From a virus (lineage: Duplodnaviria > Heunggongvirae > Uroviricota > Caudoviricetes): a DNA stretch of 10,401 nt. This document shows, piece after piece, positions 1-10,401 of this stretch. A program made the translations under genes and the position numbers. How positions within the stretch are numbered: the stretch's first letter is position 1; each line of letters starts with the position of its first letter. The notes under the pieces are model-generated. The model ran no database searches. It saw only the letters and a program-made list of their open reading frames with translations, and was not told where the DNA came from. The stretch lies in the IMG/VR virus record IMGVR_UViG_2671180770_000023; one strand, written 5' to 3'.

Positions 1-183
1 TTACCGCCGCAACCGCTCCGGCTTCTTCCAGTGGTACGTAATTTTTTCCTTCTCCCGATACATCTCAACGCGGCGACGGTAGGCCAGCAACTCAAGAACT
101 CTGGTTCGTATGTTGCGCATATCCACGCCATTAAGCTGGATACCATCACGGCGGATTAATCCCAGTATTTCGGCTTCTGTCAT
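1..183 (-). CDS. Hypothetical small protein (60 aa), basic C-terminus
   Basis: Complete ORF with ATG at 183-181 and stop TAA at 3-1 (window edge). GGGGG SD-like run 4 nt upstream. No family recognised. Confidence 0.4.
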   Translation of the reverse strand: MTEAEILGLIRRDGIQLNGVDMRNIRTRVLELLAYRRRVEMYREKEKITYHWKKPERLRR

Positions 184-216: not shown

Positions 217-430
217 CGGGTCCTTCCTGGAATTATGGCCCGTTACGGGGCGGCGACCTCGCGGTTTTTATCTGTTTATGAAAATTTTTCTGGAAAAAGC
301 ATGTCGGTACTTCTCGAACATAACTATTTGTTTTTAAATAGATACACAATAAAAAGAAACGACACGGTAATCATCTAAAATGGCGATTTATGACGCTTTC
401 ATGTCGTTTCTCAGTTTTGTTCAATAATTG
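217..430 (+). other. Lambda-type cos site, copy A (cosQ-like 217-230, cosN 248-259, cosB-like 260-430)
   Basis: Contains GGGCGGCGACCT followed by CGCGGTTTTT...GTTTATGAAAATTTTTCTGG, which matches my recollection of the lambda left end. The cosB-like part has inverted 8-mers AAACGACA (357-364) and TGTCGTTT (392-399) resembling Nu1 R sites. Upstream CGGGTCCTTCCTGG resembles cosQ. Confidence 0.7.
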
Positions 431-438
431 CGCGTCTG

Positions 439-981
439 TTACTCGCCTTTCTTCTGTAGCAACTTTTCCGGTACGTTTCCGGTTGTTTCTTTCAAGTAAT
501 CAGCCAGTATCTGTGGGAGGTTGTCGGCAACTCTGGCACTGGCATTACAGGCTTTAACCACTTCCCTTTTAAGCCTATCCAGCATGGCGGGGGTAATCTG
601 TGGGAAGCTCCTTTGCATAGTAAGCGGGAGGCTGTCCATGATTGATGAAATCTGACTCGCCAGCTTTGAAAGCGCGTACAGGCAAAACTCAGTATCAATC
701 ACGTCACCGCGATCGCGCTCGTTTTTAAGTTCCTGCGCCTCCGCCTGTGCTGTCAGTAATCTGATCCTGACTCGTAAGAGTTCATCATCATCAATATCGC
801 CTTTGTCGTTTGTAAGCTGGCTAATTGCATTGTTAACCCTATTGTCTATCACGCTGGCAACATCGTAAAACGCCTCACGGCCTTTACGTTCAACGGGAGT
901 CACTCCCCACTTGTCGAACGCTGTCGCACTTACACGGCAGCTTTTCGCCATGTTTTTTTTGTTCATCAGGTGCGATTTCAT
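439..981 (-). CDS. Terminase small subunit, lambda Nu1 family (180 aa)
   Basis: Central and C-terminal region (LLTAQAEAQELKNERDRGDVIDTEFC...MDSLPLTMQRSFP) aligns well with recalled lambda Nu1 (LTRAQADAQELKNARDSAEVVETAFC...LDGLPLSVQRRFP). N-terminal winged-HTH region is more diverged. True start is uncertain (ATG at 981, 966 or 951); none has a clear SD. Confidence 0.8.
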   Translation of the reverse strand: MKSHLMNKKNMAKSCRVSATAFDKWGVTPVERKGREAFYDVASVIDNRVNNAISQLTNDKGDIDDDELLRVRIRLLTAQAEAQELKNERDRGDVIDTEFCLYALSKLASQISSIMDSLPLTMQRSFPQITPAMLDRLKREVVKACNASARVADNLPQILADYLKETTGNVPEKLLQKKGE

Positions 982-1158: not shown

Positions 1159-1182
1159 AAAAAAAAGCCGGATTTCTCCGGC
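1159..1182 (-). terminator. Rho-independent terminator after the capsid operon
   Basis: On the minus strand: GCCGGA-gaaa-TCCGGC hairpin (1182-1167) followed by T8 (1166-1159), 7 nt past the stop of the 137-aa ORF. Confidence 0.6.
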
Positions 1183-1188
1183 CTTGTC

Positions 1189-1602
1189 TCAGATGGTTTT
1201 CAGTATGCGATCGATGTCGCCGTCATCGCCCTGGTTTCTGCCATCGTATGCCATGCCAGCTGATACGGCTTGCGGGCTGTGCATGTCCATAAAGTTTTCA
1301 AAGGCTGCGGTAAGCTCTGGTGCAACCTTCTGGCGTTCCTGCTCTATGGTCATGCTAAGGATGCTTTTAGCCGTACCAACATCGATACAAGGCACGTTTG
1401 CCATTGCACGCAACAGCGGCTGATAGTCTTTATGCTCATGAAGCGCCATAATCGCATCAGCGCGCGGCTTGTCCTGCTCTTCCAGTTTGTTTAGTTGATA
1501 TACGGCCTCATAGGTTGATAAACCTCTGTCAGCCATTGCCCGCGCTTCGGCTTTAAATTTACTCGCCAGCGGTAGCGTCATGATGCTTTCATTCGTTGCC
1601 AT
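1189..1602 (-). CDS. Hypothetical head-module protein (137 aa), acidic C-terminus
   Basis: Tightly packed after the gpD-like gene. GGGGGA SD 3-4 nt upstream of ATG at 1602. No family recognised; any packaging or connector role is inferred from position only. Confidence 0.6.
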   Translation of the reverse strand: MATNESIMTLPLASKFKAEARAMADRGLSTYEAVYQLNKLEEQDKPRADAIMALHEHKDYQPLLRAMANVPCIDVGTAKSILSMTIEQERQKVAPELTAAFENFMDMHSPQAVSAGMAYDGRNQGDDGDIDRILKTI

Positions 1603-1614
1603 CGTTCCCCCTGC

Positions 1615-1950
1615 TTATCGGGCCAGCGGCTGAACGGATACGCCGGAACCCGCAAAGGCGGCGCATTTTTTCGCATCGGTGTCGACGCTCTCAGGCCAGT
1701 TAACGGCGGCAATATTGAATATCCCCGTCTTGTAACACTGTGCTGATTTCTGCTTTGACGTGTCCACAGGGTACGAGGTCAGATAAACAGCCTTGCCAGA
1801 TTCCTTACCATCCCACGGCTTAAACTCGCCATTGTCCGCCAGCATCAGCGGGGTAAATTCCTGAATAAAGCCAGCATCAGCGGCAAAATGTACCAGCGTC
1901 GTGGCGACCTGCTGACTGCCTGCAAATAACTCAATGTATGGAGTGTCCAT
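1615..1950 (-). CDS. Head decoration protein, lambda gpD family (111 aa)
   Basis: TPLMLADNGEFKPWDG...YKTGIFNIAAVNWPESVDTDAKKCAAFAGSGVSV aligns with recalled gpD (TPLMLDTSSRKLVAWDG...[35 protein letters not shown]). GGGGGA SD upstream. Confidence 0.8.
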   Translation of the reverse strand: MDTPYIELFAGSQQVATTLVHFAADAGFIQEFTPLMLADNGEFKPWDGKESGKAVYLTSYPVDTSKQKSAQCYKTGIFNIAAVNWPESVDTDAKKCAAFAGSGVSVQPLAR

Positions 1951-1961
1951 AGAATCCCCCG

Positions 1962-3017
1962 TTAACCAATTTTGACGGTAACAAATTTGCGAATATCTGC
2001 CGGTACCGGCTGCGGTGCACTGTGTGTCTGCACGTACTCAATCGCCGGATCTCCGTCCTCAATCCAGTTTTTCGGGTAGTACATGTTTTGCGTTGCCCCC
2101 GTTCTTACTGCGTCCTGATCCATAATCGCACCATAGGCCACCAGCCCTTTATTGTTGGTGTTGCCCAGGACAAGCAAATCAGGCTCAAGGAAATATTTTT
2201 CTCTGCCGTCACTGTCGGCGTATTTGCCGGAATAGACGATAAGGGCAATATCGCCCAGATAGCCTTTAAAGCTCACCACTTCGCCCAGGTTTTTACATGC
2301 CAGCTCTGCGGCGGACTCTGAACCACGGGAAAGATCGTACAGCTCACGGAATTTTTTAAAGCTGCGTAACGTTCGCCATACCTCAGCGCCCATAATCATG
2401 ACGTTGGCGGGGCAACCTGCCTGATCGGCGTATAGTTCGATATCATAGATTGGATCGTGGATTTCTTTGTCCTGCTCTGACCATTTTTTACCGTCGGCCT
2501 GCTCTATGATGTTTTTTTCCGGTATCTTCCAGTCGATTTCATAGCGCTCTATGCCTTCGCCCTCAATGATGTTTTTTCCGGTCGTTACCGCATTTACCGC
2601 CAGCCATTCCACGCGCGCTTTTATGGCGTTTATCTGGCGGCGCATATTGCCAGTAATCAGGCGCATACGGCGATAGGTAGGGTCGTTAAGCTGTGCCGGA
2701 TCTTCTCCAGCCATGCGCATGATGGTTTTCGTTGGATCGATTTCGTGCTTTGGCTTCATGTAGCCAGGTTTGATTGTGCTGGTTTCGTACCCTTTATCGC
2801 GCTGAACCTGGCTACCCACCATAGGCGAACAAAACGCCGACATGGTGACTTCTTCAATGTCCAGGGTATCCAGCATGATGTTTTGCGTGCTGAATGTCGC
2901 CACGTTCGGGAAAAACAGCGTGGTAAACAGCGGACTGAATTTAAATTCCGCAATATCCCCGCGATTCAGGTACGCAAAAAGCTGGTTAGTGTTAAGTGCC
3001 ATTGCTTTTACTGTCAT
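1962..3017 (-). CDS. Major capsid protein, lambda gpE family (351 aa)
   Basis: FKFSPLF..LFFP...TSTIKPGYMKPKHEIDP...DPTYRRMRL...YPKNW...GDPA matches recalled gpE (FKFDPLF..LFF...TSEFTPGYVKPKHEVNP...DPAYRRRRI...YPKNW...GDPA). ATG at 3017 lies 4 nt after a G10 run on the coding strand. Confidence 0.85.
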   Translation of the reverse strand: MTVKAMALNTNQLFAYLNRGDIAEFKFSPLFTTLFFPNVATFSTQNIMLDTLDIEEVTMSAFCSPMVGSQVQRDKGYETSTIKPGYMKPKHEIDPTKTIMRMAGEDPAQLNDPTYRRMRLITGNMRRQINAIKARVEWLAVNAVTTGKNIIEGEGIERYEIDWKIPEKNIIEQADGKKWSEQDKEIHDPIYDIELYADQAGCPANVMIMGAEVWRTLRSFKKFRELYDLSRGSESAAELACKNLGEVVSFKGYLGDIALIVYSGKYADSDGREKYFLEPDLLVLGNTNNKGLVAYGAIMDQDAVRTGATQNMYYPKNWIEDGDPAIEYVQTHSAPQPVPADIRKFVTVKIG

Positions 3018-3226
3018 TATTCCCCCCCCCCGTGAACCTGATTCATACCCAGCGCCGCGCGTAAATAGGCGCGTACCTGCCAGCCTGTTGACGGCTCAAC
3101 CATCGCCAGCGGGTCAAGTCCTGCCGCAATGCCTGCTTTTACGTTCTGCTGGTGGCGTTCCTTGAGCGCCTTCACGATGTCGGGGCTTATGTACACCGAA
3201 ACACCGCCTTTTTTCTCTTCAGCCAT
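3017..3226 (-). CDS. Hypothetical protein (69 aa) ending ...VHGGGE, encoded through the G10 tract
   Basis: ATG at 3226 with AGAGGA SD about 10 nt upstream. Its stop TAA (3019-3017) shares one base with the capsid ATG. No family recognised. Confidence 0.5.
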   Translation of the reverse strand: MAEEKKGGVSVYISPDIVKALKERHQQNVKAGIAAGLDPLAMVEPSTGWQVRAYLRAALGMNQVHGGGE

Positions 3227-3282
3227 AGTAAGAAATTCCTCTTTGACTTAAAAAATCATAACTGGATGTTCATCCAGTCCTG

Positions 3283-3310
3283 ATTATAATCAGGATTGCA
3301 TTTTGCGCAA
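3283..3310 (-). promoter_or_regulatory. Candidate sigma70 promoter for the 69-aa/capsid/decoration operon, embedded in palindromes
   Basis: Minus-strand TATAAT (forward 3288-3283) with TTGCGC 16 nt upstream (forward 3310-3305). The -10 sits at the centre of an 18-bp perfect palindrome TCCTGATTATAATCAGGA (3278-3295). A second palindrome ACTGGATG-tt-CATCCAGT (3261-3278) lies in the leader. Confidence 0.5.
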
Positions 3311-3385
3311 TGAAATTGAGTTACGTTGCAAATTATGAAATGATTTACGGCAACAGTAGTCACCATGCTGTTAACCTCGTAAGCA

Positions 3386-3427
3386 AAAGCCCGATAAGCT
3401 TCCTCCTGTACTTATCGGGCTTTTTTT
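3386..3427 (+). terminator. Strong hairpin with T7 tract (plus-strand terminator; weaker in minus orientation)
   Basis: GCCCGATAAG (3389-3398) pairs with CTTATCGGGC (3411-3420), loop 12 nt, then T7 (3421-3427). In the minus direction the hairpin is followed by UUUUGCUU. Confidence 0.5.
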
Positions 3428-3433
3428 GGATAC

Positions 3434-3455
3434 AAAAAGCCGGATTTTCTCCGGC
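3434..3455 (-). terminator. Rho-independent terminator after ssb
   Basis: On the minus strand: GCCGGA-gaaaa-TCCGGC hairpin (3455-3439) followed by TTTTT (3438-3434), 8 nt past the ssb stop. Near-identical to the 1159-1182 terminator. Confidence 0.55.
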
Positions 3456-3463
3456 CTGTGCGT

Positions 3464-3874
3464 TCAGAACGGAATATCATCACCGTAGGGGTCATCGTCT
3501 CCCGCTGGTGGCTGATTACCCTGTGTGCCTGTGGTTTTGCGTCTGTTCCCGCCAGGACGTGCCGCACGGGCACTGATTACGCTGTCTGCAATAACCTGAT
3601 AACCCTGCCGCGTTTCCCCGTTCTGTCCGGTCCACTGGCTGACCTGCATCGTGCCGGATACGCTGGCAACGTCGCCTTTTTGATGTTTAGCCAGGAAGTC
3701 GGCCTGCTTACCAAATGCGATGACCGATAGCCATAACGTCGCCTGCCCATCCTGCGCCTGACTACATGGCAACGATACCGCCATACGCGCCAGCGTCATT
3801 GGTGTGCCCTTGCTGGTCTGTTTTACCTGCGGGTCGTCCACTAGCCGCCCGTAAGCGGCTATCTGTGCTGTCAT
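3464..3874 (-). CDS. ssb: Single-stranded DNA-binding protein (136 aa)
   Basis: OB-fold-like N-terminus, Gly/Pro/Gln-rich linker and the canonical acidic tail ...DDDPYGDDIPF. Start ATG overlaps the upstream stop as ATGA (3871-3874). Confidence 0.85.
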   Translation of the reverse strand: MTAQIAAYGRLVDDPQVKQTSKGTPMTLARMAVSLPCSQAQDGQATLWLSVIAFGKQADFLAKHQKGDVASVSGTMQVSQWTGQNGETRQGYQVIADSVISARAARPGGNRRKTTGTQGNQPPAGDDDPYGDDIPF

Positions 3875-4149: not shown

Positions 4150-4198
4150 ATTTATTTTTACCCCCTCGTTTAAAAAGTTTTGAGTTGTGCCTCCCCTT

Positions 4199-4344
4199 GT
4201 CTACCTTATCTACCTTAGTGGCCCTCATACCAGTAATGGCGCGGCTTTCAGCGGGGTAGAGTGCTTTTATCCAGTATCTACCCCGTGTCTACCTCCCTGT
4301 CTGATTCAGGTAAAATCAGGTAGAGAGGGTAGATAGTGGGTAGA
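4199..4344. repeat. Iteron cluster, putative replication origin
   Basis: Eight copies of a 6-bp core: TCTACC at 4200, 4209, 4277, 4288 and its complement GGTAGA at 4255, 4319, 4328, 4339. Adjacent copies are 9-11 bp apart. AT-rich flanks at 4141-4185 and 4345-4370. Lies directly 3' of the primase gene. Confidence 0.65.
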
Positions 4345-4360
4345 CAGCAATTACAAAAAA

Positions 4361-4855
4361 TTATAAAAACGCGTCGCACTCGTCTGTTGTTATTGCGTTA
4401 GTCTGCGTTACCCCCTTAACTTTCCGCGTAATATATTCATGTCCGTAAACTTTTGCGGCAGGCTTCATAGCCTTGCCAAAGTCATTTACGTTTAGCGGTT
4501 TGCTCCTGCCTGCGTATGCCATAAACGCCAGATAGACGCGGTAAAGGCTGTTCCTGGTCGTGTACTTCACTGAATCGCCACCGCCGCCCATCATCAGGCC
4601 GCGTGCTTCCTCCAGAAAATTCAGGAACTGGCAAAACTCAATAACCGGATCCGTCTGTTGCTTTATTGCCAGAGCTTCATCACCGTCACGCTGTTCCAGT
4701 AGTAAAGCCCGTGCCTTCTCAGGGTCGGTAAAGTTCGCCAGCAATCGGCGGATAATGACAGGGATTTCAGCCGCGATCTTTTCCGGTAGCTCCCTGTCTT
4801 TTTCGGCCTCACTGACGATATTGTCGAAACGGAAAATCACGCGACGACGTGCCAC
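4361..4855 (-). CDS. P4-family primase/helicase, C-terminal segment, out of frame with the upstream segment (164 aa)
   Basis: Begins at a GTG. Sequence (A)RRRVIFRFDNIV...DPVIEFCQFL continues the conserved post-NTPase region expected after ...GVW in this family. Overlaps the upstream ORF by 19 nt in a different frame. Confidence 0.7.
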   Translation of the reverse strand: MARRRVIFRFDNIVSEAEKDRELPEKIAAEIPVIIRRLLANFTDPEKARALLLEQRDGDEALAIKQQTDPVIEFCQFLNFLEEARGLMMGGGGDSVKYTTRNSLYRVYLAFMAYAGRSKPLNVNDFGKAMKPAAKVYGHEYITRKVKGVTQTNAITTDECDAFL

Positions 4856-6108
4856 ACCCCGGCCCGTTCGGTGAATATCATCGGGTTATTGTTGGTCGCC
4901 AGCACCACCGCCCTGATTACAGCCGTGAAACGCTTTTCGTATTTCGGGTTAATTTCCACGGGGTCACCGCCCGTGATTTTCTTGATGCCCGTTCCTTCGC
5001 CTGTATATTTCGGCTGGTCAGCCAGGACGATAAGACGACTCCCGACAACCTGCGCACGTCCACCAGCATCATCAAGCGATGTCATTTCAGCGCTTACCGT
5101 GTTCTGTTTCCCTGCCAGAAGGCTGGCTATGTGCGTGAATGTACTTTTACCGCTCCCGCCGTCTCCGGTGGCCTCAATAAACATCTGCCAGTCGTACCGG
5201 TTCGCCATAATCATGTACAGCGCGGCACATATACGCATCATCTTGCGCGGGTCTTTTCCGGCTGCGTGCTTAAGCCATTTATGAAAGTTTGGCGCGTTAT
5301 CGCGGATGTTCTCCCCTGGTGCTGGTGGCGTGTACTCAATGCCGTTGTGCGTGGTGATCCAGTTCTCCGGCGTGTGCGGGGAAAATTCCCCCGTTTTCAG
5401 GTCAAGCGCACCATTGGCGAACGGCAGCAAATCGCCGGACGGCTCGCCCATTGGTTCGGCAATAACTTTTAACGCTTCCACGGCGTTATTGATTACGCGC
5501 TTGCTGAAAGTGGCCCTGTGCTCTGAATAGATCGCCACCATTTCGCGGCTAAGTTCCATTGTGCTGACCGGACACCATACCCCGCCGCGCCATACGTGAA
5601 CGATTTCACTTTCCTGATGCACACAAACGCCATCAAAGCGCTCGGCAAGCAGCTGCGCGCGCTCACTGTCTGCCATTTGTGCCAGTTGCGTATTTTTCTG
5701 CTCCGGCATGGTAAGCCCTGCGGCAATATTTTCACGCTCAGCATTCAGATAGCGCCGCCAGTTTTCACACTTCTGGACGTGCATTCCTTCGTGGTAAAAA
5801 TTTGCGTCCTGAATATCTGCCGCCGCCAGCTTCTGACCAATCTTTTTGGTCTCCACCAAATCCAGTTCTCCGGCCTGGTACAGCCTTACGCGTTTTTTTC
5901 CATCCGGAACAATTTTCAGTGCATCAAGTTCGGCAAGCTGATTTGGCCCAAGCCACACAGGCGGCACATTATCGCCGGATGCGGGGCCGTCCTGCTCCTG
6001 CCACTGTTTTGCATGTGCCCACGCATCACTACCCGCGAAAATAATTACCTCTGTGTCTTTGTGTTTTATTCCGCGTGGTTGTTTTTTTACGTTCGGTGCC
6101 AGTTTCAT
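4837..6108 (-). CDS. P4-family (D5-like) primase/helicase, N-terminal domain plus P-loop NTPase segment (423 aa)
   Basis: Walker A GDGGSGKST, Walker B-like RLIVLAD and KKITGGDPVEINPKYEKRF motif typical of the phage/plasmid primase P4-family C-terminal domain. AGGGG SD 6 nt upstream. ATG overlaps the upstream stop as ATGA. Confidence 0.8.
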   Translation of the reverse strand: MKLAPNVKKQPRGIKHKDTEVIIFAGSDAWAHAKQWQEQDGPASGDNVPPVWLGPNQLAELDALKIVPDGKKRVRLYQAGELDLVETKKIGQKLAAADIQDANFYHEGMHVQKCENWRRYLNAERENIAAGLTMPEQKNTQLAQMADSERAQLLAERFDGVCVHQESEIVHVWRGGVWCPVSTMELSREMVAIYSEHRATFSKRVINNAVEALKVIAEPMGEPSGDLLPFANGALDLKTGEFSPHTPENWITTHNGIEYTPPAPGENIRDNAPNFHKWLKHAAGKDPRKMMRICAALYMIMANRYDWQMFIEATGDGGSGKSTFTHIASLLAGKQNTVSAEMTSLDDAGGRAQVVGSRLIVLADQPKYTGEGTGIKKITGGDPVEINPKYEKRFTAVIRAVVLATNNNPMIFTERAGVWHVVA

Positions 6109-6404
6109 TTTTTACCCCTGAATACGTTAAGCATCTTTTTTATTTCCTGAATATTGGCGCGTGCTTTCTCCCTGCTGGTTGGTTTACTGCGGGGCGCTGC
6201 CTGTACCAGAGAAAAATCACGCCGAAACTGATAAACAGGCATCACGCAATCATATTCGTAGCCTTCACGACGGTAGGTGATGCGCCGTTCCTCCACGCCC
6301 TTAATCATTACCGTGCCGCCGTACTGGTCGCGGTAAATATCACCGCGCATGAATTTAGTGCGAGTTTTGCCACTGGCAGTTAAGCCAGAATATTTAAGTT
6401 TCAT
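6105..6404 (-). CDS. Hypothetical protein (99 aa), translationally coupled to the primase
   Basis: ORF with GGAG about 10 nt upstream of ATG at 6404. Stop overlaps the primase ATG. No family recognised. Confidence 0.55.
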   Translation of the reverse strand: MKLKYSGLTASGKTRTKFMRGDIYRDQYGGTVMIKGVEERRITYRREGYEYDCVMPVYQFRRDFSLVQAAPRSKPTSREKARANIQEIKKMLNVFRGKK

Positions 6405-6409
6405 TATTT

Positions 6410-6637
6410 TTATTCTCCGGTGTGGGGCGCTTTATTATTCTCGTGAATTGCCATAGCCTTATTGAGTTCATCAATAACAGGTGTCAATAATGTCTGAACA
6501 GCGGCAAACATTAATGATGAATGATCTTCGCCACCTTCCGGCACTTCAATTAATTTAATTAACAACGCATTCATTTCGCGTGCTTTAATTAATGCGTTTT
6601 CAGAGTGGATTAATACTTCAAAATGGATTTTATGCAT
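6410..6637 (-). CDS. Hypothetical small protein (75 aa) in AT-rich patch
   Basis: ATG at 6637 (the track's first M is a GTG at 6640). GGGAG upstream. Overlaps the preceding gene by 8 nt. Confidence 0.45.
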   Translation of the reverse strand: MHKIHFEVLIHSENALIKAREMNALLIKLIEVPEGGEDHSSLMFAAVQTLLTPVIDELNKAMAIHENNKAPHTGE

Positions 6638-6860
6638 CACAAATTTTCTCCCTTATTCTTTTAATGTCCTCATTAAGGATGTCTGTAACTTTTATCAGCG
6701 AGTTTTTGGCAATTATTTTTATTGTTTTAAGTTTTCTTTTGTCGTGCTCCGACTGTGATTTTCTCTCCATAATCTCCACCATGTGGGTAACATCAACGAG
6801 CGCACGTATCAGTATTTGCATTGCTTCTTCTGCTGCGTCCGGTGTGGTTTTATTGCACAT
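6630..6860 (-). CDS. Hypothetical small protein (76 aa) in AT-rich patch
   Basis: Internal ATG at 6860 chosen over the ORF-track start at 6914 because GGAGGGG lies 5 nt upstream and it avoids a 65-nt out-of-frame overlap. Confidence 0.5.
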   Translation of the reverse strand: MCNKTTPDAAEEAMQILIRALVDVTHMVEIMERKSQSEHDKRKLKTIKIIAKNSLIKVTDILNEDIKRIREKICDA

Positions 6861-7080
6861 GTACCCCTCCGCATTTTTTTTCGTTAGAAATAAGCGTTCT
6901 TCTTTCCTGTTCATCGATCAGGAATACGCAGACCTCACCGCTAAGGCGTTTAAGTAAGCCGATGATTGCCCCTGATTCGCTGTCGGTCATCATGCCAGGG
7001 TAATCCTCTGCCAGTGCGCAAATAACTTCGATTTGGTGGGCGCGTTCTGCTGCCTGTTGTAGTGTGATTTCCTGGCTCAT
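6850..7080 (-). CDS. Hypothetical small protein (76 aa)
   Basis: ATG at 7080 overlaps the stop of the Icd-like gene as ATGA. The longer ORF-track version (start 7200) would overlap the Icd-like gene out of frame. Confidence 0.5.
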   Translation of the reverse strand: MSQEITLQQAAERAHQIEVICALAEDYPGMMTDSESGAIIGLLKRLSGEVCVFLIDEQERRTLISNEKKCGGVHVQ

Positions 7081-7244
7081 AAGCCTACCCCCTGACGAAT
7101 ACGGGCGACAAAAATCAGATGTGCGTGCGGCAGCTGGGCGCGGGCTTCGCGTTCTGTTGCTGCCGTGACGGTAAAGAGTGATGTTTGTTTTTCCTGGCAC
7201 TGCATAAAGCGCCAGACAAAGTAAGGGCGTGCGGATACAGCCAT
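7077..7244 (-). CDS. Icd-like / Ash-family-like small protein, copy 1 (55 aa)
   Basis: Motif VWRF...TEREAR...FVARIRQG. TAGGAGCC SD 8 nt upstream of ATG at 7244. Family call is from recalled motif, not a search. The frame stays open upstream to 7580 (see findings). Confidence 0.5.
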   Translation of the reverse strand: MAVSARPYFVWRFMQCQEKQTSLFTVTAATEREARAQLPHAHLIFVARIRQGVGL

Positions 7245-7530
7245 GTGAAAGGCTCCTACAGTAATTTTAAGGAGTCTCGCTACTACGCTGCTAAACGGGG
7301 TGGCGAGACGTAACAGGGTTAGCAGACTGGCACTGTAGGAACCAGCGAGCGCAAAGGCTCCCCCGTTACGCCCCGCCATAATGCGGGTATGGGTAGGCTT
7401 ACGGACACAAAAAAACCGCATATCGGAATATAAGCGGCTGTCCGCTACAGTATTCAGGCTGCTAAACCCGGTCGCCATGTGGGCGACGGGGGAAGCATAC
7501 AGCCCCGTTATAATTTTTTGCAAGCGGTTT

Positions 7531-7728
7531 TTACGCATGATGTGACCCCTGACGAATACGGGCGGCGAATACAGCAACACAACCGGACGGGCAACGGCTA
7601 CGCGCTTCGCGTTCCGTCCAGGCGGTTACGTGGATGATTTGAGATTCTCCGGCACTCAGTGCCAGAAAACGCCACACAAAGGCCGTTTGTGTGTGTACAA
7701 GGTGTGGTATATGATTTACAGCAACCAT
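7531..7728 (-). CDS. Icd-like / Ash-family-like small protein, copy 2 (65 aa)
   Basis: Motif VWRF...TEREAR...FAARIRQG, paralogous to copy 1. CTAGGAGCC SD 5 nt upstream of ATG at 7728. Confidence 0.5.
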   Translation of the reverse strand: MVAVNHIPHLVHTQTAFVWRFLALSAGESQIIHVTAWTEREARSRCPSGCVAVFAARIRQGSHHA

Positions 7729-7897
7729 AACGGCTCCTAGTTTACGTTGTTGGTTAGAAGCCCTGCGAGTGGTAACGACACTTGCGGGGCTTTGTCTTTT
7801 CATCGATTACCTTGATAAAGGTGTCAGCCACGTCAATAGTGTTTTTCCGTTTTCTTGTGTGTATACTGTCAGCCACCTAATAACGAGGAAATCAGAT
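7729..7897. promoter_or_regulatory. Divergent intergenic control region between the leftward early operon and the rightward small-gene pair
   Basis: Plus-strand -10-like TATACT (7862-7867) upstream of the RBS GAGGA (7884-7888). Direct 10-bp repeats TGTCAGCCAC at 7822-7831 and 7867-7876. I could not find a convincing -35/-10 pair for the leftward operon. Confidence 0.45.
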
Positions 7898-8077
7898 ATG
7901 GCAACAAAAGCAGTTAATGCAAAATCCAAAAAGCTTGAGGCTCGAGTACCTCACGCAATAGCTGATGCTGTAGAAAATTTAAAGGAAGATGGCGAAAGTA
8001 CAGGGCAATTTATCGTTTCGGCACTTGAAGGCGAGATCAAACGCCGCCAGCGCCGCAAGGCCAAAGAATCAGAATAA
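7898..8077 (+). CDS. Small DNA-binding protein, probable ribbon-helix-helix (Arc/CopG-like) regulator (59 aa)
   Basis: Internal ATG with GAGGA SD 9 nt upstream, preferred over the SD-less start at 7769. KLEARVPHAIADAVENLKEDGESTGQFIVSALE fits a strand-helix-helix pattern. Basic C-terminal tail. Confidence 0.55.
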   Translation: MATKAVNAKSKKLEARVPHAIADAVENLKEDGESTGQFIVSALEGEIKRRQRRKAKESE

Positions 8078-8456: not shown

Positions 8457-8663
8457 TTAAGCAGCCGTTCCGCGTGCTTCCTGTTCGCGTTCTTTCTGCC
8501 AGGCCAACACATCATCCTCATACCATCCGCGACGGCGTAAACCAACGCGAAAACCCTGCGGAAATTCTCCGGCGTTGATCATGCTTTGCAGCGTGCTGTC
8601 TGCCTTGCTGTGGATAATTTTTTTTACTTCCTGGCGAAAGATAATTTTTCTGATTGCTTCCAT
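8457..8663 (-). CDS. alpA: AlpA-family phage regulatory protein (68 aa)
   Basis: STLQSMINAGEFPQGFRVGLRRRGWYEDDVLAWQKER matches the AlpA / prophage CP4-57 regulator pattern (recalled AlpA: ATIYDWLNPKSPRYDATFPKKRMLGVKSVGWIEAEIDEWLSQR). AAGG 8 nt upstream of ATG at 8663. Confidence 0.8.
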   Translation of the reverse strand: MEAIRKIIFRQEVKKIIHSKADSTLQSMINAGEFPQGFRVGLRRRGWYEDDVLAWQKEREQEARGTAA

Positions 8664-9159: not shown

Positions 9160-10401
9160 CTACACGGCTCGGATACCCCTTTTACCACTGGCGAGGGTTA
9201 CGCCCGTCGCCGCAGCCTCGACAAATTCGCCCCACCAGCGCATCAGCACGATGCGTTTTTCTATGTAGTTGCTCCGGTTGTATGCCCGTCTAACTTCGTT
9301 GGTGTCGACGTGGGCAAGTGCCGCCTCTATTACGTCCGGCTCGAATCCTTCCTCGTTCGCTGCTGTGCTGAATATGGCGCGTAATCCATGAGACACCAGC
9401 ACGCCAGCGAATCCCATACGCCGCAATGCTGCGTTAGCTGTCTGGCTGTTCATCGGCTGCTGTGGGTCTTTCAGACTTGGGAAAACGTAATTGCGGTGGT
9501 GGCTGATTGGTTTCATGGCCTCCAGCACCGCCATAGCCTGACCGGAAAGCGGGATAACGTGATCCCTGCGCATCTTCATGCGTCCGGCAGGTATCGTCCA
9601 TTGCTTCGCGTCCAGGTTGATTTCATCCCACCGCGTTGATGACGCTTCGGCGGGACGGGTTACGGTCAGTAACTGCCATTCAATCAGTAATCTGGTCTGC
9701 CGTTCTGTTGCCGATACTGATAAAGCCTGCATAAGCTCCGGCAGCTGTTCGGGGCGGATTGTTGGCATATGTTTTTTTACAGGTGAGGGAAACGCCTTAC
9801 GCACATTCATAGCCGGATTGGCATCAATCAGCCCACTGTTGGCGGCGTAATCCATTACCTCATTAACGCGCTGTAAAACCCGCTTGAGTGTTTCCAGGTT
9901 GCCGCGCTCCTTGATGGGGGTAAGCACTTCAACGAACCTTCGGGCGGTGAGGGTATCTATTGGCGTGTTGCCGATGAACGGGAATACATATTTATCCAGC
10001 GAACGCCAGATGTCTTTAATCGTGTTGGGGGCCAGATTCTGGCTGATTTTCACCTGGTACCATGCCGCCGCCACATTTTCGAACGTGTTCCCTTGTCTTC
10101 GGGCCTCTGTCTCTCTTTTTTGCCTCTCGTGGTCCTGCGGGTCAGTTCCGGCACTGATTAACGTCCTGTACTCGCTACGGCGTTTTCTGGCATCAGCCAG
10201 GGAAACATCTTCAAGCGATCCAAAACTCAGCAATATTCTTTTTTTGTCCGATGGTCGGTAGTAGGAAAATCTCCAGAGTTTTGATCCAGACGGTTTGACC
10301 AGGAGAAAAAGCCCTCCGCCGTCCTGCAGGGTGTACTCCTTTTGCGCTGGTCTGGCTGCTTTGATCTGCACTGTGGTTAATGGGTGTGTTTTTCTCGCCA
10401 T
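9160..10401 (-). CDS. int: Tyrosine recombinase, P4-type integrase (413 aa)
   Basis: N-terminal arm-binding-like region (GGGLFLLVKPSGSKLWRFSYY...) typical of P4-like integrases. Catalytic H-x-x-R (HGLRAIF) and C-terminal Tyr region (RAYNRSNYIEKR). ATG is the last three bases of the window. Confidence 0.9.
   Translation of the reverse strand: MARKTHPLTTVQIKAARPAQKEYTLQDGGGLFLLVKPSGSKLWRFSYYRPSDKKRILLSFGSLEDVSLADARKRRSEYRTLISAGTDPQDHERQKRETEARRQGNTFENVAAAWYQVKISQNLAPNTIKDIWRSLDKYVFPFIGNTPIDTLTARRFVEVLTPIKERGNLETLKRVLQRVNEVMDYAANSGLIDANPAMNVRKAFPSPVKKHMPTIRPEQLPELMQALSVSATERQTRLLIEWQLLTVTRPAEASSTRWDEINLDAKQWTIPAGRMKMRRDHVIPLSGQAMAVLEAMKPISHHRNYVFPSLKDPQQPMNSQTANAALRRMGFAGVLVSHGLRAIFSTAANEEGFEPDVIEAALAHVDTNEVRRAYNRSNYIEKRIVLMRWWGEFVEAAATGVTLASGKRGIRAV

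Follow-up and report, generated by a model that had tools for sequence, protein, structure and literature searches.

Why would a small mobile element keep genes for the shell of a phage head while lacking the rest of the head machinery? This question is raised by a 10,401-nucleotide stretch of DNA, the Caudoviricetes record IMGVR_UViG_2671180770_000023 of the IMG/VR collection (the whole stretch is hereafter called the window), in which a major capsid gene and a decoration gene related to E and D of phage lambda lie at positions 1189-3226, inside an island with an integrase and a primase. The original prediction, made from the letters alone, proposed capsid remodelling by a satellite, for example into small capsids sized for the island and built on the portal and scaffold of a helper. 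The element is a classical Gram-negative phage-inducible chromosomal island (PICI) of the cos type, belonging to the family of EcCICFT073 from Escherichia coli CFT073, and the testable defining features of such islands were found in it, the AlpA-type regulator only as a weak match. The capsid feature itself is already known, published and experimentally probed. New here are the placement of the capsid gene in a satellite-only clade, with the E-then-D order kept in islands of Escherichia, Salmonella and Serratia and with purifying selection, and the prediction that the protein c1501 of EcCICFT073 and its homologues are Nu3-type scaffold fragments, a modest annotation that gives a concrete handle for experiments.

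Genes of the capsid operon

All major open reading frames (ORFs) of the window are on the minus strand, with the integrase at one end. Four of them form a tight operon, which consists of an ORF of 69 amino acids (aa; 3017-3226), the major capsid gene (E, 1962-3017), the head decoration gene (D, 1615-1950) and a 137-aa ORF (1189-1602). The stop codon of the 69-aa ORF and the ATG of the capsid gene share one base, and intervals of 11 and 12 nt separate the genes that follow. Both the coordinates and the E-then-D order first proposed were borne out on the minus strand; in lambda the order is reversed (D 5747-6079, E 6135-7160).

The products of the capsid and decoration genes are true gpE-family and gpD-family proteins. 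The 351-aa capsid protein is a full-length match to Pfam PF03864 (Phage_cap_E, 8.2e-51), with residues 26-349 on profile positions 14-328 of 329 and a score of 173.4 bits against a gathering cut-off of 22.9, and it matches PHROG family phrog_29 at 6.2e-108. It shares 43% identity with lambda gpE over 342 alignment columns with only 6 gaps, and 45% with its counterpart from the CFT073 prophage integrated at icd, the reported integration site of the EcCICFT073 helper prophage (PMC10111431). The 111-aa decoration protein matches Pfam PF02924 (HDPD, 1.1e-16; 61.5 bits against a cut-off of 29.1) at profile positions 6-112 of 116 and phrog_49 at 1e-26, and shows 36% identity with lambda gpD across 76 residues. 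None of the module proteins has a model in NCBIfam. The two small ORFs had been called unrecognised; this description fails for the 137-aa ORF, discussed in the next section, and fits the 69-aa ORF insofar as its match, phrog_3255, is annotated as function unknown and no match was found in Pfam.

The remaining head genes were looked for inside and outside the window. Among the window ORFs scanned against Pfam and PHROG, there was no match to portal, protease, large terminase (TerL), connector, tail or lysis families, and 10 kb of the source contig beyond the island hold no portal, protease, TerL or tail genes; connector and lysis genes are likewise not called in its flanks. The island therefore has shell genes without portal, protease, TerL or tail genes, as had been stated, and the one amendment is that a scaffold-type protein, the 137-aa product, is present. 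The window corresponds to positions 2617-13017 of a contig in an E. coli assembly (GCA_001277695.1; 100% identical), where an AIDA-type autotransporter, narP and ccm genes follow the last island gene, and tRNA-Pro and yejM lie past the integrase. The same flanking genes are annotated in E. coli Nissle 1917. Judged by 26-nt direct repeats (putative att), the island is ~11.25 kb long. Because host genes flank it on both sides and no lambda-like head or tail module continues leftward, the element is a satellite rather than a rearranged prophage, in agreement with the first interpretation.

The 137-aa protein as a predicted scaffold fragment

The 137-aa protein, here termed mini-Nu3, is homologous to the C-terminal portion of the lambdoid scaffold gpC/Nu3 but is encoded on its own, and scaffold activity is predicted for it. 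It matches phrog_1999 at 3.8e-66 and also phrog_53, a family of head maturation proteases, over the C-terminal end of that family (6.2e-09). The phrog_1999 profile is in turn matched by residues 117-200 of lambda Nu3 (2.7e-26), and it is spanned in its entirety by residues 365-501 of the S49 protease (the gpC homologue) of the CFT073 icd prophage (1.5e-68). In pairwise comparisons, mini-Nu3 is 36% identical to the C-terminus of this protease over 83 residues (E = 2e-9) and 37% identical to the annotated Nu3 of phage PhiR12_2_star, a member of the phage group that also supplies the best capsid-protein matches among phage records. The alignment reveals two Nu3-type repeats ending '...PGMTVE.A+.IL' and a C-terminal tail '...FE.FM..HSP..V..G...D..LL'; the N-terminal ~70 residues of Nu3 are missing. 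Scaffold-type proteins had been named at the outset as a comparison worth making for this protein, and the relationship to the Nu3 C-terminus was found by profiles and by pairwise identity. A direct BLASTP comparison with lambda Nu3 gave no match, so the link to Nu3 itself runs through profiles and intermediate sequences.

The family is narrow. No match was found in Pfam, and an exhaustive HMMER search with the 137-aa protein returned 8 representatives, the informative ones being a 134-aa relative and a 195-aa Nu3-like protein. AlphaFold2, run without an alignment, gave an all-helical model with a pLDDT of 40.6, which is unusable. The protein was left unnamed (c1501) in the 2018 table (PMC6092414). 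NCBI names this family (P0002-P0034) 'phage head-tail connector protein'; no support was found for this name, which looks wrong, since the profiles point to the C-terminal scaffold part of gpC/Nu3.

Relationship to EcCICFT073 and other capsid-bearing elements

The prototype EcCICFT073 has the same gene order from int to the last gene. In the CFT073 island, this order is int, a helix-turn-helix (HTH) regulator, an Icd-like gene, small ORFs, DUF4222, the primase, the single-stranded DNA-binding protein (SSB), PerC, a 68-aa ORF, capsid, decoration, and ORFs of 137, 144 and 93 aa. The 69-aa ORF occupies the position of c1498, and the capsid, decoration and 137-aa genes are the equivalents of c1499, c1500 and c1501; the four encoded proteins are 97.1%, 97.7%, 99.1% and 97.1% identical to their counterparts, respectively. 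The prototype genes c1499 and c1500 were named capsid protein and head decoration protein, and the supplement lists c1499 with 351 aa and c1501 with 137 aa (PMC6092414). EcCICFT073 likewise has two inverted lambda-type cos sites around a packaging-specificity gene. The two islands differ in several respects, the packaging-specificity gene being the only substantive one around the module. EcCICFT073 encodes the 144-aa RppA between its cos sites, whereas this island encodes an unrelated 180-aa small terminase (TerS) of the Nu1 type; EcCICFT073 is integrated at roxA/pepT and this island at tRNA-Pro/yejM; the PerC-like gene between SSB and the capsid operon is absent here; and the primase gene of this island is frameshifted.

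Several other systems share some of these properties. Capsid-forming PICIs (cf-PICIs; prototype EcCIEDL933) also combine int, alpA and rep with their own HK97-fold capsid protein, the lineage of which is well apart from phage homologues. However, cf-PICIs produce small capsids of their own and also encode portal, protease, head-tail connectors, HNH and TerL; those genes were not found here, and the family prototype EcCICFT073, unlike cf-PICIs, is packaged in phage-sized heads. The lambda head module contains the same families (Phage_Nu1, the Nu3 C-terminal domain, HDPD and Phage_cap_E) and the same cosQ-cosN-TerS layout, but its order is cos, Nu1, A, W, B, C/Nu3, D, E, whereas that of the island is E, D, mini-Nu3, cos, TerS. 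The island proteins are only 35-43% identical to those of the lambda head, and A, W, B, the protease part of C, FI and FII are absent from the island. SaPIbov5 Ccm and SaPI1 CpmB resemble the island proteins in being a satellite-encoded capsid homologue and a short scaffold-like protein, respectively; redirection of capsid size or shape has been demonstrated for both, while the equivalent test on EcCICFT073 was negative. The HE-PICI 11capE has an EcCICFT073-like size and gene order and its own gpE-family capsid gene (PMC10111431), but it inserts into the capsid gene of its helper prophage, whereas the present island lies in the chromosome beside tRNA-Pro. As for P4-like satellites, no PHROG or Pfam match to sid, psu or delta was found; the cos is of the lambda type, and only the primase is of the P4/D5 type.

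A satellite-specific capsid lineage under purifying selection

A homologue of the capsid protein was found in 401 of 50,697 phage records, the best of which reaches 47% identity. Relatives in a large protein collection form a graded series instead, at 86, 83, 69, 65, 60 and 54-55% identity. A search of genome contigs with the capsid protein yielded pattern matches and no confirmed relative; the relatives were found by a protein homologue search followed by a look-up of the encoding contigs. The context of four of them (from Salmonella, 69% identity; E. coli, 65% and 55%; and Serratia, 54%) is in each case a small island with int, alpA and a primase or helicase. In all four, E is followed by D and by a variable third gene, and three also carry a Nu1-type TerS. 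Compared with lambda gpE or with the icd prophage capsid protein of CFT073, the satellite capsid proteins show 42-45% identity; the two phage proteins themselves share 62%. Since E-then-D is kept in satellite islands that stand well apart from phage capsids, this order is, as far as sequence comparison can tell, the hallmark of an old satellite clade and not a local rearrangement. The genuineness of this trait, already emphasised when the locus was first described, is thus reinforced by the related islands. Mini-Nu3 occurs only in E. coli lineages; its copy in the related island L018 has 141 aa and is 28% identical.

The module genes are under purifying selection and are maintained despite the lack of a laboratory phenotype. 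In pairwise comparisons among five islands, in all of which the module ORFs are intact, the ratio of nonsynonymous to synonymous substitution rates ranges from 0.07 to 0.27 (capsid gene), from 0.00 to 0.30 (decoration gene), from 0.20 to 0.63 (137-aa gene) and from 0.10 to 0.76 (69-aa gene). Of 5,426 complete E. coli genomes, 598 carry the module, which in 592 of them is nearly full-length, at 92-98% DNA identity.

Two unusual arrangements were also observed among the relatives. A 463-aa protein from a Logan contig (P0104), 55% identical to the capsid protein, carries PF03864 and PF02924 in one polypeptide and in the satellite order; this E-D fusion could be real or the product of a sequencing frameshift. 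In E. coli A33 (L015, NZ_CP028742.1 4257783-4277819), several islands of the family stand head to tail, with five copies of the module. Many genes in this record are marked as frameshifted, and the quality of the assembly is doubtful.

Published experiments on capsid size

The capsid and decoration homologues in EcCICFT073 were described in 2018 (PMC6092414), and a major capsid gene was later reported in 21 of 29 reference Gram-negative PICIs and found to be dispensable for transfer (PMC10111431). The feature is therefore neither distinctive nor new. Induction and high-frequency transfer by a helper phage have been demonstrated only for the prototype (PMC6092414). When EcCICFT073 was packaged with lambda, all packaged DNA was phage-sized, which the authors regarded as excluding capsid size redirection; after induction of the CFT073 prophages, no band of PICI monomer was seen (PMC6092414). 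Deletion of c1499 or c1500 did not restore lambda plaquing, and left both interference and transfer unchanged (PMC6092414). According to later papers, these islands are packaged into phage-sized capsids. Moreover, the c1498-c1501 site, termed the 'adaptable module' of the island in a paper from the Penades laboratory, has been swapped for cas9 or melA, and the resulting islands were still packaged and delivered from phi80 lysogens (PMC10530653, PMC10460865).

One possible explanation of the negative results, a scaffold-null background caused by the marker c1501::tetA, was considered and rejected: the primers place the cassette right after the c1501 stop codon and before the terminator. Since the c1501 ORF is intact in c1501::tetA and the module is complete, the published negative results stand. 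Small, island-sized capsids, as originally predicted, are thus unsupported for the tested helpers, because a prototype with 97-99% protein identity yielded only phage-sized DNA and its module proved dispensable.

Possible functions of the module

We tentatively favour, at somewhat less than even confidence, a reading in which the module encodes functional proteins that supply the satellite with lambda-sized shells, to a conditional benefit and with no reduction in size. A helper would induce the island, which would be excised and would replicate from its own primase and origin, as published for the family. Concatemers would then be cut at the island cos by the helper TerL, recruited by the Nu1-type TerS of the island rather than by an Rpp protein, and island DNA would be packaged into helper-type heads. 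The operon would contribute the shell subunit E, the trimeric cement D and a truncated Nu3-like scaffold, proteins which touch one another in a lambda-type head and which would build or join lambda-sized (T=7-type) shells on the helper portal. With lambda, phi80 or the CFT073 helper prophage such a supply would be superfluous, and it would be of use only under other conditions or with other helpers. This reading is suggested by the alignment of the capsid protein with gpE without notable insertions or deletions, by purifying selection and by the satellite-specific clade, as well as by the fact that the retained proteins contact each other rather than portal, terminase or tail. Shell assembly, the T number and the conditional benefit are the parts that we infer. 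Since lambda packages roughly 78-105% of 48.5 kb, four island copies (~45 kb) would fit a full-sized lambda-type head.

A number of points weigh against such a shell supply. No experiment has detected the satellite E or D protein in particles, and in all published tests transfer and interference did without the genes, or without the module as a whole, so that the argument for a structural role is one of homology and selection. At 43-45% identity to helper capsids, docking on a foreign set of portal, protease and connectors is not guaranteed. The candidate promoter of the operon, described below, is sub-consensus and is followed by a terminator-like hairpin. In addition, more distant islands keep E and D and have an AlpA-domain protein or nothing in the slot of mini-Nu3, which limits the argument from a three-protein set to the E. 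coli lineages.

Alternatively, which we consider unlikely, the proteins might have no part in the particles of the satellite itself, and might interfere by poisoning or titration with head assembly in competing lambdoid phages other than the helper, or serve defences that recognise capsids as decoys or sensors. Genes that are selected and yet dispensable for transfer would suit a role outside packaging, a scaffold fragment without the N-terminal part of Nu3 could be dominant negative, and PICIs are known to carry anti-phage functions (PMC11364771). On the other hand, lambda plaquing was not restored in the c1499 or c1500 deletions, although rppA (c1503), the interference gene identified in a 2019 paper (Fillol-Salom, Mol Cell), was still in place and may have hidden a weaker effect. 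The module genes have no reported interference phenotype, and full-length, strongly constrained E and D proteins across genera exceed the apparent needs of a poison.

Size redirection by a Ccm-like capsid protein or a CpmB-like scaffold, giving small capsids with room for one or two island genomes but not for the helper genome, would have to operate with natural helpers beyond those tested, and appears quite improbable. SaPI1 CpmB reportedly acts as an alternative internal scaffold, and a truncated scaffold that keeps the conserved C-terminal part resembles a competing scaffold of this kind. An 11-kb genome would also fit a small icosahedron. Furthermore, Ccm is a capsid-protein homologue that makes small capsids (PMC6092414), and PmCI172 has a capsid homologue and small heads (PMC8569155). 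Nevertheless, EcCICFT073 with an intact module gave phage-sized DNA with lambda and no monomer band with the CFT073 prophages, loss of c1499 or c1500 neither relieved interference nor changed transfer (PMC6092414), and the authors state that these islands use phage-sized capsids. The capsid protein also lacks any notable insertion or deletion relative to gpE.

Finally, the genes might be functionless leftovers of a lambdoid head, carried along by the island, or the element might be a defective prophage that was rearranged. The missing laboratory phenotype and the frameshifted primase of this copy would agree with this, but the explanation is very improbable and largely refuted by the selection and distribution data. 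Purifying selection acts on the ORFs, all of which are intact, and 592 of the 598 carrier genomes have the module at nearly full length. The gene order is kept across genera in an old clade that is specific to satellites, and host genes flank the 11-kb island on both sides.

The packaging site next to the operon

The capsid operon directly abuts the packaging site of the island, and TerS and cos lie outside the region to which attention had first been drawn. The first cos site, a lambda-like cosQ/cosN block on the minus strand (1086-1157), contains the cosN 12-mer GGGCGGCGACCT at 1126-1115, which is identical to the first 12 nt of the lambda genome, and it sits just upstream of terS, as in lambda. 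The second site (217-288, plus strand; cosN at 248-259) is inverted relative to the first, and the two form a 72-nt inverted repeat, 82% complementary, around terS. Two inverted cosN copies occur in every close relative that has an exact match to the 12-mer; the related island L018 is without an exact match.

The 180-aa TerS (439-981, minus strand) matches Pfam Phage_Nu1 at 2.3e-23 and phrog_57 at 3.1e-53, and its residues 6-166 are 35% identical to lambda Nu1. In EcCICFT073 this slot is taken by RppA (c1503, 144 aa); no sequence similarity between the two was found, and TerS had no sequence match in the PDB, the RppC entries included. Some E. coli PICIs have been reported to encode TerS and others not (PMC6092414), and the TerS variant was also found in islands of E. 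coli Nissle 1917 and O157:H7. TerS is 100% identical to that of the Nissle island, and 90% identical to that of island L019 (10948-11490), the capsid protein of which is only 55% identical. Because TerS identity is far above capsid identity, TerS and Rpp genes appear to be exchanged between islands independently of the capsid module. Among relatives, the gene between the cos sites may point either way with respect to the capsid operon: compared with CFT073, strain KGu016 has rppA reversed (L013 8190-8940), and in L018 terS is reversed (11138-11722). Judging from these arrangements, the segment between the cos sites appears to flip. The last island gene (1-183, minus strand; phrog_1561, 3e-28) has 60 aa here and 93 aa in relatives, where it holds the same position (L001, L003 and L014).

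Candidate regulatory elements of the operon

An own promoter and terminator had been ascribed to the operon. The terminator is well founded: a terminator scan identified an intrinsic terminator-like hairpin at the operon end (1164-1185, minus strand), with a GC-rich stem of 9 bp and a T-run, which lies four bases past the stop codon of the 137-aa ORF. The promoter is supported only in part, as a sub-threshold candidate conserved in five islands. It was read by eye on the minus strand (3283-3310) as TTGCGC (3310-3305), a 16-nt spacer and TATAAT (3288-3283); the candidate -10 element forms the loop of the palindrome CCTGAT-TATAAT-ATCAGG. A consensus scan of 3226-3437 found no sigma-70 site, as TTGCGC-N16-TATAAT fell under the scan threshold. 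Approximately 150 nt upstream of the 69-aa ORF, including the candidate promoter, are almost invariant across five related islands.

Between the candidate promoter and the start codon of the 69-aa ORF, the terminator scan detected a leader hairpin (3251-3279, minus strand), CTGGATGAACATCCAG, followed by TTATGATTTTTT, which resembles a terminator. RNA folding of 3300-3225 gave z = -2.67 compared with shuffles, and the hairpin with its U-run is kept in five islands. A promoter and then a terminator in the leader would suggest conditional read-through, both being candidate elements. A 14-nt sequence, GCAAAATGCAATCC (window 3306-3293), occurs identically in lambda, ~400 nt past gene Q and immediately before a terminator-like hairpin; we take this lambda site to be the end of the 6S/tR' region. 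The match may hint at Q-type antitermination of the operon, an unproven lead, and the late region of the CFT073 prophage has no convincing similarity to the operon leader.

Upstream, terminator-like hairpins follow the SSB gene at 3457-3437 and 3385-3424; the latter is a perfect 14-bp hairpin that also lies between the SSB gene and the operon. The terminators after the operon (1158-1184) and after SSB (3431-3457) are near-copies of 27 nt with 78% identity, so that the capsid operon is bracketed by similar hairpins.

The remainder of the island

The first island gene encodes a tyrosine integrase (9160-10401, minus strand; Pfam Phage_integrase 5.7e-29, with Arm-DNA-bind_3 and Phage_int_M). The stretch from the integrase to the primase contains an AlpA-like gene and then a run of small ORFs. 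The 68-aa AlpA-like regulator (8457-8663, minus strand) is only weakly supported: its Pfam Phage_AlpA score of 16.4 bits does not reach the cut-off of 21, and its matches to PHROG excisionase/regulator families stand at 1.9e-06. In L018 the gene at the same position has a Phage_AlpA match. Positions ~6450-8050 are the variable part of the element, with only patchy alignment to the Nissle 1917 island. Two adjacent ORFs of 167 and 90 aa in this part (7077-7803, minus strand) both match phrog_1743 and phrog_29966 'transcriptional repressor' and are Icd-like in RefSeq relatives, which suggests a duplicated or partly decayed gene.

The P4/D5-type primase-helicase (4361-6108, minus strand) is split by a frameshift into pieces of 423 aa (6108-4837) and 164 aa (4855-4361), which match consecutive phrog_864 positions (84-475 and 477-627) as well as Pfam D5_N and DUF5906. 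The gene is intact, with 582-584 aa, in islands that are 99.9% identical. The split (junction 4837-4855), which the source assembly shares, is either a recent inactivating mutation or an assembly error; a published pri-rep deletion lowered transfer about 100-fold. Just downstream of the primase gene, tandem iteron-like repeats of 9-12 nt occur at 4195-4369, the reported place of the PICI replication origin, and one related island has ~50-65 extra bases at this site. A 92-aa ORF lies between primase and SSB, and the replication module ends with the SSB gene (3464-3874, minus strand; Pfam SSB 4.2e-17).

Implications for PICI biology

In engineered PICI delivery vehicles, cargo takes the place of this module, which gives its function practical interest. 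The question left by the present analysis is why approximately one in nine complete E. coli genomes, as well as related islands of Salmonella and Serratia, keep a constrained, satellite-specific E/D pair that is dispensable in every laboratory test. It is a speculative and rather doubtful idea that classical PICIs are shell-only capsid formers, standing between ordinary PICIs and cf-PICIs, in which, with natural helpers, transducing particles would carry a satellite E/D lattice (with a truncated Nu3 template in E. coli lineages) assembled on stolen portal, protease, connector and tail components. If true, the satellite could use a wider set of helpers, or could escape host defences and interference directed against the capsid protein of the helper. 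Knowing what the module does would tell whether a satellite can combine a shell of its own with portal and tail parts taken from a helper, and it bears on the origin of cf-PICIs and on helper range.

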